This document shows positions 3,489 to 8,433 of a DNA stretch of 8,433 nucleotides, piece by piece. A program made the translations under genes and the position numbers. The DNA lies in UHGV virus genome UHGV-1948712. One strand, written 5' to 3'. The DNA is from a virus. The notes below the pieces were generated by a model, which had not been told where the DNA came from, ran no database searches, and saw nothing but the letters and a program-made list of their open reading frames with translations. Every line of letters begins with the position of its first letter. Position 1 is the first letter of the stretch.

Positions 3489-4747
3489 CACTCACCCCCT
3501 TTGCGAAGCAATGAAGTTAAAGAAGTAAAGACATACCAGAACGTAAGGCAATAAAAAACCCATGAAAGAACATCTTTAATAGTCAGTAATTTATCGCAAC
3601 CAATATCAATCTGATAAACCTCTCCGGGAAAAATAATAAAATCAGAGCAGCCGTTACCATTGGGTAAATTAGGCAGCATAGCACCTTTATTTAAAAATGC
3701 TTCCCATAAAGCACCGTGAGAATCCTTTTCAATTCCCAATTCAGAATCAGCTAAAGTAGAAGCGCCATCTAATTCAGAGTCGCCCTTTCCATAACGAGAA
3801 TCACCACCTGAAGGGTCAGCAAAACGGCCAGCCCCCCGCGTAAGATTGTTAATGGAATCGTCAAGACGATTTATATTATTCCTGGTTTGTTCATCGGCAT
3901 TTTTTTTATCATCTGATGAAGTGTCTTTCTCCGTTAATTTATCATGAATATCGCTGGCTATTTTGGGTGAAGCACCTTCGATCGCAGACTGAATATCACC
4001 TTTAGAAAGACTGGAACCACTAGAGCCACCGCCAGAACTACCGCCAGAACTACCGCCAGAACTACCGCCACCGGACTCACCACCGCCAGACTCACCACCA
4101 CCGGACTCACCACCACCGGACTCACCACCACCATTTTGGGGGGTTGAGGGTTTATCAGAGGGGTCAGCTACAGCACCTGTAGGCTTCCATGTTGCAGCGC
4201 AAACAGTACCATCACCCTGACAAACAATGACACCAGTAGCCTCATATTCACAGCCGTTATAGTAGATATAGCGACCACCATCATATGAATCAACATTATT
4301 AAATACACCTTCTTCTGGCGGCTTCGCTTCACAAATTTCTTCTGGTGTCGGGTCAGTAGGTTTTTCATCAGGAACAGAACGCTGAATATTACCAACAATA
4401 TAAGCCGTTAAAGACCAATATTTATCCTTCTGCCCTGGTGAATCGCTGTAAGTACAATCGCCAGTAAAAACAAGACGGAATTCAGAATCAGGCCAGATAC
4501 CCTCATAAGTTGGTTTAATCCGAGTAAATACACTCTGAGCACTGGATTTAGCACCCTGACAAGCGGAGGCCTGCATAGCAGCATCAATATAGTAAACCGT
4601 TATCTTAGAGCCATCCTGATTGGTTATTTGCTTACTTTCAGCATAGGCAGAACTTTGATAAGTGGATTTAGTAATGCTTTCCCATGACTCAGCATGTGAA
4701 AAAGGAGAAATGAGGACAGCGGAAAGAATTAATATTTTCCTTCTCAT
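3488..4747 (-). CDS. III: gene III protein, adsorption/minor coat protein
   Basis: 419 aa from Met 4747 (signal peptide [19 protein letters not shown]), Cys-rich N-terminal domains, long Gly-rich linker, C-terminal hydrophobic anchor. The longer ORF to 4891 would overlap gene VIII and its terminator. Confidence 0.85.
4010..4132. repeat. tandem 15-nt and 12-nt coding repeats (GGGES x4, GGSS x3) in the gene III linker
   Basis: Near-perfect repeats of CCACCGGACTCACCA-type and CCGCCAGAACTA-type units, translating on the minus strand to [41 protein letters not shown]. Confidence 0.85.
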
Positions 4748-5055: not shown

Positions 5056-5151
5056 TTACATTAATCGGTCAGAAAATGATTTAAATGAACCGACCGCATA
5101 GAAAAGGGCAAAACCAAAGGTATAAGCCCCGAAGAAATAAACGATATACAT
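5056..5151 (-). CDS. IX: gene IX protein, minor coat protein
   Basis: 31 aa hydrophobic peptide MYIVYFFGAYTFGFALFYAVGSFKSFSDRLM. ATG overlaps the gene VII stop (TAATG). Size and position match M13 pIX (32 aa). Confidence 0.65.
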   Translation of the reverse strand: MYIVYFFGAYTFGFALFYAVGSFKSFSDRLM

Positions 5152-5237
5152 TAACGAAAGACCCCCGCAGTAATCGCGCCGAGGCCAAAAGAAATAACGA
5201 TGCCAGACGCTATCAAAATTTGAATAACATCGTCCAT
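5151..5237 (-). CDS. VII: gene VII protein, minor coat protein
   Basis: 28 aa hydrophobic peptide MDDVIQILIASGIVISFGLGAITAGVFR starting 2 nt after the gene V stop. Size and position match M13 pVII (33 aa). Confidence 0.65.
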   Translation of the reverse strand: MDDVIQILIASGIVISFGLGAITAGVFR

Positions 5238-5239
5238 AT

Positions 5240-5557
5240 TTAACCTTTGATCTCTGCGATGCCACCATCGGAAGCAACATTATAAGTTACACCTTCCCTA
5301 CCCTCCATTGACCACGCACGGACATAGACAGGAATTTGAACTAATTTCCCAATGAAAGCATTCGCCTGGTTCATTAGACCTGCGTTAACGAGAGCCTGAG
5401 AAACTCGAATAATAATTTGATCCTGCTTTGTACCACCAAAACCATCAGGTATTTCAAGGCCAATACCAATTTCATTATAATAGCCCTGACCATTAACTTT
5501 ATTACGTTGGCGGGCTCCCAACATTTTACCCTTAACGAAAAGACCATAATTAGACAT
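5240..5557 (-). CDS. V: gene V-like ssDNA-binding protein
   Basis: 105 aa ORF in the gene V position with AAAGGA SD (7-nt spacer). Only weak similarity to M13 gVp as recalled (segment GQGYYNEIG vs GKPYSLNEQ), so the call rests mainly on synteny. Confidence 0.65.
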   Translation of the reverse strand: MSNYGLFVKGKMLGARQRNKVNGQGYYNEIGIGLEIPDGFGGTKQDQIIIRVSQALVNAGLMNQANAFIGKLVQIPVYVRAWSMEGREGVTYNVASDGGIAEIKG

Positions 5558-5568
5558 ATTACTTTCCT

Positions 5569-5883
5569 TTAATGCCAGCTACTGGCGTGCGAAATACGGT
5601 TGTAATCGAAAATAAAACCTTTCTCATAAATCCATAAGGGGATTTCCGCTGGCTTGGCTTCCAGCGTTCTTATTAGCGGAACAACGTTATTAGAGTCTGG
5701 TGAATCACAATAGAAATTAATATCGATACCGAACGAAAGCAATTCTCTTCTATGGCGATAAAAAGTGTTATGAGGTAACATTTCTTTCATGTTAGCCCCT
5801 TGTTTCCAAAGTAAATAAGTTGACTGTATTTTTCTTGGCAGTTTCGTTATTTTTTCATCACTTAAAATAGCATTCTGATTCAT
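5569..5883 (-). CDS. X: gene X protein, in-frame internal start within gene II
   Basis: Internal Met (MNQNAILSD...) aligned with the M13 pX start (MNIYDDSAVLD...), preceded by a GGGAG SD at 5894..5890. 104 aa C-terminal portion of pII. Confidence 0.6.
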   Translation of the reverse strand: MNQNAILSDEKITKLPRKIQSTYLLWKQGANMKEMLPHNTFYRHRRELLSFGIDINFYCDSPDSNNVVPLIRTLEAKPAEIPLWIYEKGFIFDYNRISHASSWH

Positions 5884-6663
5884 TTCTATTCTCCCTACAT
5901 ATTCAGAGAATAATTGACGTGGTGTTTTCATATTCCAGTTAGCGCCAAGCGTTAAATTTAAATCAATAAGCTCAGTTGTTCTTAATGTTAATTCAATACG
6001 TAATTTATCTTTCGTCCAGTCCAGTAACCCGGCTCGTACAAACTCTTCGGCTATCTGGTGCCCTTTTTTACCAGAAACGTGTTCATCATATTTTGAATAA
6101 AATTTCAGACTCCATCGACGGGAGTTTTTACCTAAATAAACTGTACCGCCTTTCCCACATGCGCGACCATGGCGTGTTTTAGCTTTAAATTCGGCGGCAT
6201 AAAGCCATGATCTGACATTTTCCAGCGTAGATAATGAATACATGTAATTAATGTCAATACGTGAAATTTTATACTGACCTGCCATAACGGCTTTATAAGA
6301 CGCTAAATCATGAGGAATATTCAATAAGGATAAAATCCTGGCATAGACCGTCAACATGAGCCCTTGTATATCATCCGACCCAACAACAGAATGCCCCTGC
6401 AGAAACTTGGAAGGATTACCATCAATGTACAAATGTGTCGCTTTACCTTCGCCATTAGATCCTATCGATCGTACTTTCATCGTTGCTTCATGCGAACCGC
6501 GAACAGTCAGTCGCTTAACGGTTTCCCACTCAATTGCACCGTCAGCATCAACGCTGACAACACTCCCCGCCGGAAGCGGTTTGTGTGTGCAAGGGAAAAT
6601 CCCGGTAAGCCAATCGATCACGAATAAATCCTCAAAATTACAAAAATGATGACTTACTAACAC
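5569..6663 (-). CDS. II: gene II protein, rolling-circle replication initiator/nickase
   Basis: 364 aa with similarity to M13 pII (KFLQGHSVVG vs KVLQGHNVFG; NNVVPLIR vs NNVVPLVR). The start is a GTG at 6663..6661 with a stop 3 codons upstream and no obvious SD, so the exact start is uncertain. Confidence 0.85.
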   Translation of the reverse strand: MLVSHHFCNFEDLFVIDWLTGIFPCTHKPLPAGSVVSVDADGAIEWETVKRLTVRGSHEATMKVRSIGSNGEGKATHLYIDGNPSKFLQGHSVVGSDDIQGLMLTVYARILSLLNIPHDLASYKAVMAGQYKISRIDINYMYSLSTLENVRSWLYAAEFKAKTRHGRACGKGGTVYLGKNSRRWSLKFYSKYDEHVSGKKGHQIAEEFVRAGLLDWTKDKLRIELTLRTTELIDLNLTLGANWNMKTPRQLFSEYVGRIEMNQNAILSDEKITKLPRKIQSTYLLWKQGANMKEMLPHNTFYRHRRELLSFGIDINFYCDSPDSNNVVPLIRTLEAKPAEIPLWIYEKGFIFDYNRISHASSWH

Positions 6664-6779
6664 ATGAGTTCAGTAGTTCATTAGTGTTTTAACATTACAC
6701 CAGTGAGCTAGTGAGTTCAAGAGGATTGGATGATATGAGTTCATGAGCATGTATACTCACTTCAAATATTGCATTGAAC
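6664..6779. repeat. cluster of GAGTTCA/GTTCA repeats in the divergent II / accessory-cassette intergenic region
   Basis: GAGTTCA at 6666..6672, 6713..6719 and 6738..6744; GTTCA at 6676..6680; inverted TGAAC at 6775..6779; an ACTCAC inverted copy at 6755..6760. Five pentamer copies in about 115 bp is far more than expected by chance. Confidence 0.5.
6692..6720 (-). promoter_or_regulatory. candidate sigma70 promoter for gene II
   Basis: On the minus strand: -35 TTGAAC (6720..6715), 17-nt spacer, -10 TAATGT (6697..6692), about 30 nt upstream of the gene II start. Sequence-only prediction. Confidence 0.4.
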
Positions 6780-6790
6780 GAGCGTAAAAA

Positions 6791-6973
6791 ATGGCAAAGC
6801 GCACGACTTATAACGTGACGGAAGAAAGAAAAATGAAACTAGAACGACTGGCTATAAATGCCAGTGTAAAACTAGGAAAAACAATTACATGGACAGAGAT
6901 TTTAGGTTATCTGATTGATAACTACTCTAAAGATGCAGCAGAAGATCTCATGTCTGCCAAACAAAAGGATTAA
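6791..6973 (+). CDS. ribbon-helix-helix-like small DNA-binding regulator, 60 aa
   Basis: MAKRTTYNVTEERKMKLERLAINASVKLGKTITWTEILGYLIDNY fits the RHH pattern (basic beta-strand, helix A, G-containing turn, helix B) of CopG/Arc/MetJ-type proteins. Transcribed divergently from gene II. No SD before the ATG, so it may be leaderless or start elsewhere. Confidence 0.5.
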   Translation: MAKRTTYNVTEERKMKLERLAINASVKLGKTITWTEILGYLIDNYSKDAAEDLMSAKQKD

Positions 6974-7026
6974 GTACCACGAATGGTACAAACGTGCAGT
7001 ATTACCTACACTGCACGTTCTTTATT
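6974..7026 (+). terminator. tandem hairpins, the second terminator-like
   Basis: Hairpin 1: GTACCA (6974..6979) / TGGTAC (6984..6989), 4-nt loop. Hairpin 2: AACGTGCAGT (6991..7000) / ACTGCACGTT (7010..7019), 9-nt loop, followed by CTTTATT. Sits just after the RHH gene stop. Confidence 0.5.
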
Positions 7027-7061
7027 GTGCGGATTTTGAACAGCAACAAAGGATCAAAAGG

Positions 7062-7484
7062 ATGAGTAGAAATAACGAAACAAGCGGCGTTGAACTGGTT
7101 GTTGTAGGCGTATTTGCTTTCTGTCTGGCAGTTGTTGCCTGGCTAATGAAAACTTTCGATGTTGAATGGCAAACAGCACTGGAAACTGCGCCTGGCCTGA
7201 TAGTCTGGCTGCTTGTTGTCGGTGCGGGGATCTTTTTCGGGATCAAAATGGAAACTGGCCTTATTCGCTGGGGTGCTCCACTGGCGATCGCCCTTCTGAT
7301 TCCGGTATTCAAGCCAATTCTTAAGGAAGCTGCCGGAGTTCGTGAAACGGGTGGGCTGGTTTTCGATGATATGGTTTCGTGGTATGGAACTGGCTGGGGA
7401 ATGTCTCTGATGTTCTTCGGGATTCTTATTGTCGGATACGGTCTGCTTTATTGGTGGCACAGAAGGAATTCATATTATTGGTGA
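7062..7484 (+). CDS. small integral membrane protein (3-4 predicted TM helices), 140 aa
   Basis: ATG at 7062 with AAGGA SD at 7049..7053 (8-nt spacer). Hydrophobic stretches LVVVGVFAFCLAVVAWL, GLIVWLLVVGAGIFFGI, APLAIALLIPVF and SLMFFGILIVGYGLLYWW. The ORF track extension back to 6915 would cross the hairpins and overlap the RHH gene, so the internal start is preferred. Confidence 0.5.
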   Translation: MSRNNETSGVELVVVGVFAFCLAVVAWLMKTFDVEWQTALETAPGLIVWLLVVGAGIFFGIKMETGLIRWGAPLAIALLIPVFKPILKEAAGVRETGGLVFDDMVSWYGTGWGMSLMFFGILIVGYGLLYWWHRRNSYYW

Positions 7485-7495
7485 ATGTCAATCAC

Positions 7496-7519
7496 TTGAA
7501 TTTACAGGTTTTTTATAAT
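7496..7519 (+). promoter_or_regulatory. candidate promoter: perfect -10 TATAAT with poorly spaced -35
   Basis: TATAAT at 7514..7519. The nearest TTGAAT (7496..7501) gives only a 12-nt spacer, so the -35 is doubtful. About 40 nt upstream of the 7557 gene. Confidence 0.25.
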
Positions 7520-7556
7520 TTCAGCCCGCGCTAGTTTGATATTGTGAAAGGTGAAG

Positions 7557-8132
7557 ATGAGTATGCAACCGAATGAAGAAATGGACCTCAGGAAATTTTA
7601 CGCAGAGGGAACAGCTGACTACTTAAAAACTAAAATCAAAAAAAGCGAACGACTTTTAAAAATAAACCAATATCTATCATTTGCCCTCCCTGTCCTAGTT
7701 GGAGGATACGCATCGGTTGATCACAGCTCCAAATATTTTGATTTTTTAGTTTGGGGCACAGGGATATTATCAGTGATAGTCTTGCTTTCTAATTTATACA
7801 CGCTGGTCATGAAGACTGATGAAAATTTATCTCGATATCTGGAATCATACTCTTTCAATAAACTCCTAACTGATTTGTATGGCGAACTGTCGAGCATGTT
7901 TAAATCAAAGACAGGCAACCAGCAACCCGCTAACCATTTGTTTTCAGTGATAAAATCAAAAGATGACTTCAATGCCAAGGAAGATGAAAAATATGTTAGC
8001 AATAATGATAAGAAACGGATTATGTTCGACATTCTGGTAAAGAAAAATAAAGAATGCGTACGTTGCAATAAAATACCGACTAAATTTAACAAGCGGAAAG
8101 GTTGCACAAATTGTGGCAATCTCGTGAAATAA
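7557..8132 (+). CDS. 2-TM membrane protein with C-terminal zinc ribbon, 191 aa
   Basis: ATG at 7557 after AAAGGTGA (7546..7553); the ORF track start is a GTG at 7551. Two adjacent hydrophobic helices (YLSFALPVLVGGYASV; FLVWGTGILSVIVLLSNLYTLV), a K/E/N-rich soluble region, then CVRCNK...CTNCGN. Very AT-rich coding sequence. Confidence 0.6.
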   Translation: MSMQPNEEMDLRKFYAEGTADYLKTKIKKSERLLKINQYLSFALPVLVGGYASVDHSSKYFDFLVWGTGILSVIVLLSNLYTLVMKTDENLSRYLESYSFNKLLTDLYGELSSMFKSKTGNQQPANHLFSVIKSKDDFNAKEDEKYVSNNDKKRIMFDILVKKNKECVRCNKIPTKFNKRKGCTNCGNLVK

Positions 8133-8143
8133 AGGAGAAACAA

Positions 8144-8335
8144 ATGAGTTATAAAGTAGATCAAGTCAAAGCTCTCTGGCTTCAATTGACTGATGCGGAG
8201 AAAAAAGAATTTACAACATATCTTTTTAATGGTGAAAAAAAATCCTTACGTGAAGGATTCGAAAGTTTTAGTGTGAATAAAAGCACTACAATGCAATTTG
8301 GTGATGCAAACGTCTGCCCTGCTTGCGGAAAATAA
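8144..8335 (+). CDS. small protein with C-terminal CPAC motif, 63 aa
   Basis: ATG at 8144 preceded by a strong SD AAAGGAG (8131..8137, 6-nt spacer), 11 nt after the stop of the upstream gene, suggesting translational coupling. Ends ...GDANVCPACGK. The ORF track start at 8102 overlaps the upstream gene and lacks an SD. Confidence 0.55.
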   Translation: MSYKVDQVKALWLQLTDAEKKEFTTYLFNGEKKSLREGFESFSVNKSTTMQFGDANVCPACGK

Positions 8336-8376
8336 AATCTAAAAGATTTTGGTTCGCACAATGACGTTATGCTAAA

Positions 8377-8413
8377 GAGGCCGCTGCGGGATTCGATTTT
8401 CGCAGCGGCCTTT
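8377..8413 (+). terminator. rho-independent terminator closing the plus-strand cassette
   Basis: 11-bp GC-rich stem AGGCCGCTGCG (8377..8387) / CGCAGCGGCCT (8400..8410), 12-nt loop, followed by TTTT. Confidence 0.75.
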
Positions 8414-8433
8414 TCAACATAACGAGTCCTACA

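Follow-up and report, generated by a model that had tools for sequence, protein, structure and literature searches.

The virus genome UHGV-1948712 was analysed over its full length of 8,433 nt (hereafter the window); it carries a complete Ff/IKe-like gene set on the - strand and, divergent from gene II, a small + strand gene for a protein of 60 amino acids (aa) with a predicted ribbon-helix-helix (RHH) fold. The original prediction had described a 60-aa open reading frame (ORF) divergent from gene II, and this arrangement was confirmed, with the ORF at 6791-6973 (+) and gene II on the - strand. The features of the divergent region are listed below.

6621-5569, - strand: gene II, pII/X rolling-circle replication initiator, 350 aa
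6622-6790, both strands: divergent control region of 169 bp, with both predicted promoters and the repeats
6656-6672, + strand: candidate site O1, TAACACATGAGTTCA, invariant in 4/4 relatives
6672-6679 and 6680-6687, + strand: 8-bp-phased, less conserved copies after O1, AGTAGTTC and ATTAGTGT respectively
6692-6720, - strand: predicted gene II promoter (-35 TTGAAC 6720-6715, 17-nt spacer, -10 TAATGT 6697-6692)
6702-6724, + strand: candidate site O2, AGTGAGCT-AGTGAGTT-CAAGAGG; block 6711-6724 (GTGAGTTCAAGAGG) invariant in relatives
6730-6757, + strand: predicted RHH gene promoter (-35 ATGATA 6730-6735, 16-nt spacer, -10 TATACT 6752-6757)
6735-6750, + strand: candidate site O3, ATGAGTTC-ATGAGCAT; block 6739-6748 (GTTCATGAGC) invariant in relatives
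6775-6779, - strand: inverted GTTCA core, reading TGAAC on the + strand, within the RHH gene 5' leader
6791-6973, + strand: 60-aa RHH protein, putative immunity repressor (ATG start, stop included)

The longest gene II ORF begins at GTG 6663, which had previously been taken as the start of the gene; however, gene II most likely starts at GTG 6621, because the Pfam Phage_CRI domain (4.6e-71) aligns from residue 1 of the GTG-6621 version (G2P_X_C matches at 1.9e-29), a GAGGA Shine-Dalgarno sequence lies at 6634-6630, and the RefSeq annotation holds an identical 1053-nt coding sequence with a 350-aa product. The earlier intergenic coordinates were likewise slightly off; with this start, the intergenic region spans 6622-6790 (169 bp).

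When the ends of the window are joined (8433/1), the junction AACATAACGAGTCCTACA|TTATGCGCACC forms a dif-like site with a perfect XerC arm, and the window is therefore taken as exactly one prophage unit. Sequences 99% identical to it are chromosomal in E. coli, usually as two tandem copies beside hipA, i.e., at dif; these tandem copies and the dif-like junction identify an integrated, dif/XerCD-type temperate phage. The junction also holds a recognisable remnant of the XerD arm and an over-long central region, comparable to the imperfect dif reported between YpfPhi copies, and a strong GC-rich hairpin (GAGGCCGCTGCGGG...CGCAGCGGCCTTTTC) stands at 8377-8415, directly before the dif-like site.

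A conserved 60-aa gene with a predicted ribbon-helix-helix fold

The 60-aa ORF is a real, conserved gene. The ratio of nonsynonymous to synonymous differences (pN/pS) was 0.03, 0.11, and 0.12 in comparison with the copies in Brenneria, Phytobacter, and Scandinavium, respectively, at a synonymous divergence of up to 0.68. A profile search for the family returned 77 clusters at 50% identity; at E<=1e-5, 231 proteins were found in Enterobacterales, Vibrio, and Pasteurellaceae, nearly all of them labelled hypothetical and none with a Pfam domain. The window gene is assigned in PHROGs to phrog_2503 ('unknown function'), and it is 'hypothetical' in RefSeq, PHROGs, and the paper describing UPphi.

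The predicted layout of the protein is an N-terminal strand at about residues 4-10 (RTTYNVT) followed by helices at residues 11-28 and 34-59, in agreement with the strand-helix-helix arrangement within about 45-60 residues that characterises the RHH superfamily. Furthermore, in the monomer model the N-terminal segment is extended and unpaired, as expected of an RHH protomer. Searches for a curated RHH family profile gave no significant match, the window protein hitting no Pfam family at E<=1; weak matches to ParG were obtained with 6 of 52 relatives (best E 0.019), profile matches in the PDB to TTHA0139 (E 0.088) and ParG (E 0.14) were sub-threshold, and Foldseek returned no significant match for the protein. 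The RHH fold, as modelled, is well supported but not proven. The 60-aa protein is similar to MetJ, omega, Arc/Mnt of P22, and CopG in size and in predicted strand-helix-helix topology, but it has no significant sequence similarity to any of them. These repressors use several short repeats, direct and inverted, as binding sites (8-bp metboxes for MetJ; 7-bp heptads, direct or inverted, for omega of pSM19035), as may be the case in the window, where the phasing of the 8-bp boxes resembles MetJ metbox arrays; cooperative binding to an array in the window is suggested by the DNA pattern only.

The control region and its exchange between prophages

At least five GTTCA cores in direct and inverted orientation had been claimed for the intergenic region, and this count stood: four direct copies are at 6668, 6676, 6715, and 6739 (+), and one inverted copy is at 6775-6779 (-). 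These five copies in 169 bp compare with 19 in the other 8.26 kb of the window and with an expectation of 0.39 (Poisson 5e-5), and TGAGTTCA occurs three times in the intergenic region and once elsewhere in the window. Because GTTCA had been chosen after being seen, multiplicity was also assessed for any non-overlapping, non-low-complexity word in 5000 dinucleotide-preserving shuffles of the intergenic region. An 8-mer with three copies arose in 15 of the 5000 shuffles (0.3%), a 6-mer with four copies in 78 (1.6%), and a 5-mer with five copies in 200 (4%). The extended 8-9-mer (A/G)TGAGTTCA is clearly not a product of chance. The region also displayed an 8-bp self-periodicity, with an identity of 0.44 at lag 8 that was reached in 0 of 500 shuffles over lags 2-30, and this periodicity reflects the runs ATGAGTTC-AGTAGTTC-ATTAGTGT, AGTGAGCT-AGTGAGTT-CAAGAGGA, and ATGAGTTC-ATGAGCAT. 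Conservation in relatives is limited to three of the five cores, those within 6656-6672, 6711-6724, and 6739-6748; these motif blocks are invariant and the spacers between them have diverged.

The original prediction had also placed the repeats over the predicted gene II promoter, and this was borne out, with O2 on the predicted -35 and O1 downstream of the -10. The predicted gene II promoter scored 10.3 with a position weight matrix (PWM), among the top ~8 of 16,804 window positions, and its -10 TTACA core and -35 block are conserved in relatives. The GTTCA of O2 (6715-6719) is the complement of the predicted -35 TTGAAC, and Phytobacter and Scandinavium carry TGAAC-N6-GTTCA at O2; relative to the predicted gene II start site (about 6685, - strand), O1 lies at about +6 to +20. 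The predicted RHH gene promoter (PWM score 9.9; predicted start site about 6764, + strand) is the sole promoter-like site in a consensus scan of 6500-7150, and its TATA at 6752-6755 is invariant in relatives. O3 falls within the spacer of this promoter, a placement that suggests autoregulation of the RHH gene. The inverted core at 6775-6779 is possibly non-functional, because it is not conserved in Phytobacter or Scandinavium.

Two natural module swaps separate the repeats from gene II and keep them with the RHH gene. In a Scandinavium prophage, the RHH protein is 88% identical to that of the window, and TAACACATGAGTTCA, GTGAGTTCAAGAGG, and GTTCATGAGC are invariant while the DNA between them has diverged; the divergent neighbour there is a Rep_trans protein (PF02486) for which no similarity to pII was detected. 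The CUS-1-type prophage of UTI89 has a pII 87% identical and 95% similar to that of the window, yet the similarity between the two prophages breaks off at 6620 and is regained at 6963; the slot in between is occupied by a 148-aa HTH_3/CI-type (helix-turn-helix, HTH) protein and a 171-bp control region with no similarity to that of the window and zero copies of GTTCA or TGAAC. Because of these two swaps, the repeats are assigned to the RHH protein; they travel with its gene, and are very unlikely to be pII sites. On the same comparisons, the segment from 6622 to ~6962 behaves as an exchangeable cassette, the right edge of which is marked by the hairpins at 6975-7026.

In each of the 13 further loci that were examined, a spacer of 110-182 bp separates the RHH gene from a divergent Rep gene, which is of the Phage_CRI/G2P type in some loci and Rep_trans in others. 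A pattern scan of genome contigs had recovered only 4 close loci, as the patterns were too specific. The spacers of most loci contain a short word in 3-6 copies, which stand in both orientations and often 8 or 16 bp apart, and the repeated word tracks the N-terminal strand of the protein, as is predicted for a repressor-operator pair. The pairs of strand and word are as follows.

RTTYNVT: GAGTTCA, in the window and Scandinavium
RYVYNVR: AATGAA(C/T), the complement of GTTCATT, in Dulem virus 53
RTTMAIV: TATGCA, in Y. enterocolitica and If1-like
RKNLGVP: GCTCAC/TCACAA, in four loci, Dulem 52, 55, and 56 (lemur-saliva viruses) and Pasteurella
KYTSLRV: ATACATG, in a Vibrio phage
GDTTVRI: GCATGC, in VAI2 and pre-CTX

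By tblastn, the window protein also matched hypothetical proteins of several saliva-derived inoviruses and an unannotated ORF, 58% identical to it, in the 'major intergenic region' of If1. Outside this RHH ORF, the non-coding DNA of If1 has no nucleotide similarity to the window, and its pII was not detectably similar to the window pII by tblastn.

Several annotated features of If1 are apparently mislabelled (U02303 reverse complement 339-2683; NC_001954 about 5143-8432). 'ORF348' is the TnpB of IS605 (PF01385 and PF07282), an unannotated 147-aa ORF is the TnpA of IS200 (PF01797), and 'ORF320' is a 5'-truncated gene II. This insertion sequence lies between the gene II-proximal control region, which resembles the TATGCA-repeat spacer of the Y. 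enterocolitica prophage, and the unannotated RHH ORF, and the IS200/IS605 insertion may have uncoupled the If1 repressor gene from its promoter. In Actinobacillus equuli CP103811, short units of Rep, RHH, a 93-aa ORF, and G5P stand in tandem and have no morphogenesis genes, an arrangement that recalls the RS1 satellite arrays flanking CTX prophages.

A proposed repressor-operator switch and its alternatives

The resemblance to the RstR/rstA arrangement that had been noted for this locus was upheld by homology at about 41-42% identity in tblastn and by the slot shared with the HTH repressor of UTI89. Identity to rstR of CTXphi GQ466611 and of pre-CTX KR063268 and GU942563 was 40.7% (E 4e-6 to 6e-6, with 95% of the window protein covered), and identity to the VAI1/2 gene annotated 'RstR-like' was 42.4%; the E values of the Vibrio matches overall were 2e-6 to 6e-6. 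The 'environmental RstR' of CTXphi, the pre-CTX rstR, and the VAI1/2 'RstR-like' genes are each divergent from rstA. This homology to RstR extends to small alleles only and not to the HTH alleles, and no paper tying rstR to 'ribbon-helix-helix' was found in the literature searched. Classical RstR alleles (El Tor, classical) are Cro/CI-type HTH proteins of ~112 aa, whereas the window protein has 60 aa and a predicted RHH fold. In CTXphi and pre-CTXphi, as in the window, a small repressor gene is divergent from the gene of a rolling-circle initiator, and the short spacer that they share (about 130-170 bp in those phages and 169 bp here) holds repeated operator sequences and both promoters, those of the window being predicted. 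CTXphi also integrates at dif, often in tandem, as does the window prophage. Unlike CTXphi, the window phage has a Phage_CRI pII and not a Rep_trans-type RstA as its Rep partner, carries Ff/IKe-like morphogenesis genes including its own secretin, has no LexA box in the spacer, and has no evident RS1/RstC-like antirepressor.

In CTX phages, the repressor and spacer vary as a unit while Rep is conserved, which is the basis of allele-specific immunity (PMC11509585), and joint variation of repressor and control region beside a conserved Rep was likewise found between the window and UTI89, with the reverse case in Scandinavium. In E. coli lux reporters, each of eight rstR alleles, among them short alleles of 180-204 bp, represses the ig-2 promoter that belongs to it (PMC11509585). 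Primers for one of these, rstR6 (192 bp; PMC11509585), encode the termini MKKKYTSLRV... and ...NTQKTDLKR*, which match the termini of members of the RHH family such as the Vibrio cyclitrophicus phage protein MTQKYTSLRVKEE...; these primers had no match in viral contigs or the phage collection.

As in the window prophage, the regulator gene of YpfPhi/CUS-1 prophages occupies the slot divergent from gene II, which is 87% identical; the hairpin region and the 140-aa ORF that follow, and dif integration beside hipA, are shared as well. The divergent gene of YpfPhi of Yersinia pestis has already been proposed as an RstR-like repressor, a role that is undemonstrated (PMC4266046). In contrast to the window, the UTI89 CUS-1-type prophage has a 148-aa HTH_3/CI protein, unrelated to the window protein in sequence and fold, and an unrelated control region; as CUS-1 and YpfPhi are stated to be 99% identical, YPO2273 would be of the HTH type as well. 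The window further fits the published description of UPphi901-type prophages, including the variation in glycine-rich g3p (gene III protein) repeats. Those prophages have IKe-like structural genes, with genes II and V >85% identical to those of YpfPhi; gene IV is followed by the additional ORFs h1 and h2, reverse-orientation ORFs are present, and the genome ends carry a dif-like site (Shapiro & Putonti 2020, PMC7307601). The reverse-orientation ORFs were described as accessory genes of unknown function, and the words 'repressor' and 'promoter' each occur 0 times in that paper (PMC7307601). The suggestion that lysogeny-style control would be unusual, or newly implied, for such a phage was not supported, because this lineage of tandem dif prophages of the UPphi type is already known to be temperate and dif-integrating (PMC7307601).

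We consider 6622-6973 to be a repressor-operator (immunity) cassette of a dif-integrating filamentous prophage, with a probability of roughly 0.78, and from the data above we infer the binding of the 60-aa protein to the repeats, the promoter positions, repression, autoregulation, and immunity. The protein would dimerise into an RHH DNA-binding domain, with the ribbon residues R4, T6, N8, and T10 expected to read the GAGTTCA core, and the dimers would bind cooperatively to (A/G)TGAGTTCA cores, arranged as 8-bp-phased boxes in the three clusters O1, O2, and O3. Since O2 lies over the gene II -35 and O1 just past the predicted start, their occupancy would shut off transcription of gene II/X and of the genes downstream; this would keep the prophage quiet, with no replication or virion production, and would block replication of incoming phage of the same type. 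Occupancy of O3, inside the RHH gene promoter, would lead to negative autoregulation. In CUS-1-type prophages, the same slot beside a near-identical gene II accommodates a Cro/CI-type HTH repressor together with its own control region.

Several observations weigh against this interpretation. Taken by itself, the GTTCA 5-mer count is only modestly unusual after correction for the free choice of word. Two cores (6676 and 6775) lack conservation in relatives, and the 8-bp periodicity reaches significance in the window but not in Scandinavium. A simple PWM scan is the source of the promoter positions, and a stricter consensus scan of 6500-7150 did not call the gene II promoter. One Actinobacillus locus (L023) has no k-mer in three or more copies and holds two-copy repeats only. 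No experiment on the 60-aa protein or its control DNA was found in the sources searched; the 'environmental RstR' matched by tblastn is not among the alleles assayed in PMC11509585, and the resemblance of the rstR6 allele to the RHH family, drawn from primer-encoded termini only, is suggestive only. Finally, 6622-6790 contains neither CTGT-N8-ACAG (<=1 mismatch) nor the 20-mer SOS-box consensus (<=3 mismatches), and an induction route of the CTXphi type is not evident because the spacer lacks a LexA box.

An alternative is that the repeats are pII binding sites (an enhancer or iterons) of the plus-strand origin, with the small ORF incidental. Ff phages have an origin with pII-binding repeats in the intergenic region upstream of gene II, and the pII repeats of f1 contain GTTCC/GGAAC-like words, both of which speak for this alternative, as does another TGAAC at 7037-7041. 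It is nevertheless highly improbable: a near-identical initiator would be expected to need the same origin, and the intergenic region next to the 87%-identical (95% similar) pII of UTI89 is unrelated and without GTTCA/TGAAC, while in Scandinavium the same three sites are invariant beside an unrelated Rep_trans initiator. The non-coding DNA that is conserved with the pII type lies elsewhere, at 6963-7061 and 8344-8433, which are possible locations of the origin, and the region holds no f1- or IKe-like nick sequence; no match to the Ff-type nick consensus (GTTCTTTAATAGTGG or its IKe variant) with <=3 mismatches was found anywhere in the window. The 11-mer CACGTTCTTTA (7014-7024), which we take to be identical to the f1 plus-origin nick region, was not adopted as a nick site because it is on the strand antisense to gene II, can be read as a terminator tail too, and has a chance of ~0.1-0.2 of matching when all f1 core-origin 11-mers are allowed for. 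The same alternative had been raised in the original prediction, and it is now disfavoured and largely excluded by the two natural module swaps. Clustering of GTTCA by chance in an AT-rich promoter region, with the true operator, if any, elsewhere, would agree with the 4% of conservative shuffles that yield some 5-mer five times and with the two cores of five that are not conserved. This reading is very doubtful, as only 0.3% of shuffles reach the three copies seen for the 8-mer TGAGTTCA, the three extended blocks stay invariant beside variable spacers although synonymous divergence is 0.68, and analogous lineage-specific repeats are present in most homologous loci.

Other roles for the RHH protein itself also have to be weighed. 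It could be an accessory factor of the rolling-circle initiator that aids nicking or replisome loading, comparable to TraY/TraM at oriT, a role that we regard as unlikely given that RHH and its sites are unchanged beside Rep partners of unrelated families (Phage_CRI and Rep_trans). CUS-1-type phages put a Cro/CI HTH repressor in the same slot with the same pII, which argues for an interchangeable regulator and not a Rep-specific cofactor; moreover, the sites overlap predicted promoters, and the CTX-type homologues are annotated as the repressor RstR. Work by Moyer et al. from 2001 is also said to place the CTXphi origin in ig-1 and not in the rstR-rstA spacer, which would count against an accessory factor here. 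Alternatively, the protein could be an antitoxin with the downstream 140-aa membrane protein as its toxin, or a ParG/omega-like partition protein with the repeats as operator or centromere. The 140-aa ORF, however, follows the HTH repressor in UTI89 and is thus not linked to the RHH gene, and other ORFs stand downstream of the RHH homologues in Scandinavium, the Dulem viruses, Y. enterocolitica (the Fic protein), and Pasteurella. A hairpin and T-tract separate the RHH gene from the 140-aa gene, the 60-aa protein lacks a C-terminal extension for toxin binding past the RHH core, and the window encodes no ParA/ParF ATPase. We find both of these readings, toxin-antitoxin and partition, barely plausible, and they were rejected on gene-neighbourhood grounds.

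An RstR-like divergent repressor in dif-integrating inoviruses is an established principle, and the repressor-operator cassette proposed here is progress at the level of annotation and not a new mechanism. What it contributes is modest: an unannotated protein family gains a fold and a family assignment, the limits of the cassette are placed precisely, and candidate operators are named. It also offers a testable function for a gene labelled hypothetical. If correct, it would show which filamentous prophages are mutually immune, would account for the silence of gene II in lysogens, and would give handles to induce or cure prophages (deletion of the ORF or mutated TGAGTTCA boxes). The analysis also links the short rstR alleles used for typing cholera-toxin phages to the RHH fold, and shows that inovirus immunity modules pass from one fold class to another, and from one Rep family to another, at precise breakpoints. 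A more far-reaching proposal, which we hold tentatively and consider somewhat less probable than not, is that the window protein is the founding annotated member of a widespread, unrecognised family of RHH immunity repressors of inoviruses that includes the small CTX/pre-CTX rstR. Its dimers would polymerise on 8-bp boxes over back-to-back promoters in the manner of MetJ/omega, its cassettes would be exchanged freely with HTH cassettes (breakpoints 6621/6622 and ~6962/6963) and between Rep families, and it would define superinfection-immunity groups in Gammaproteobacteria. If this were so, the non-temperate behaviour of If1 would be secondary, the IS200/IS605 element having cut its repressor gene off from the control region.

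Neighbouring genes, cargo, and distribution

The remaining genes of the - strand follow gene II in an Ff/IKe-like order, and the + strand holds four ORFs between 6791 and 8335. These and the other features outside the divergent region are listed below.

5557-5240, - strand: gene V
After gene V, - strand: genes VIII, III, VI, and I, in this order, then gene IV (2137-779)
709-401 and 283-50, - strand: two small ORFs after gene IV
6975-7026, + strand: two hairpins after the RHH stop, GTACCAcgaaTGGTAC, then AACGTGCAGT-N9-ACTGCACGTT, then CTTTATTG
7062-7484, + strand: 140-aa predicted membrane protein, phrog_4174, no Pfam match
7551-8335, + strand: cargo slot of the window, 'mobilome CxxCx(11)CxxC' protein and 77-aa ORF

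The hairpins at 6975-7026 are probably the terminator of the RHH transcript, and the wider hairpin region 6975-7045 could be a terminator, an origin, or both. In the UTI89 prophage, where pII is of the same type, positions 6963-7491 are conserved at 92%, and the first hairpin of UTI89 has a different sequence and the same shape (GTCTCAggaaTGAGAC). The 140-aa ORF has about 93% nucleotide identity across some 150 E. coli genomes and lies downstream of either an RHH-type or an HTH-type repressor; because it is present after either type, it is counted as part of the conserved backbone, outside the immunity cassette. The cargo of the slot at 7551-8335 (+), which is bounded by the 140-aa ORF and the dif-proximal terminator, differs among copies, as listed for three relatives.

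WL297 (L004 12069-12998): STM4504/CBY_0614-family protein
UTI89 (L020 3615-4724): 369-aa hypothetical protein
Y. enterocolitica relative (L021 3814-4548): Fic-domain protein

Among catalogued phages, nucleotide similarity to the window is confined to a short stretch of gene IV (IKe and the Erwinia PEar phages), and Rfam gave no match in the window. The 99%-identical sequences are present in 48-49 of 5,426 complete E. coli genomes (~1%), the RHH repressor and control region were found in 49 of the 5,426, and the prophage type also occurs in Salmonella, Klebsiella, Brenneria, and other Enterobacterales. E. coli EC5502 (NZ_CP092647.1) has 15-16 separate places that match the element, as opposed to the usual two tandem copies, and some of its RHH and gene II copies are apparently truncated or frameshifted ('replication domain-containing protein'). 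The only other part of the window that exceeds the control region in k-mer multiplicity is a glycine/serine-rich tandem repeat (GGGES/GGSS) in g3p, at 3958-4134 (-) of gene III, the copy number of which differs between isolates (PMC7307601).

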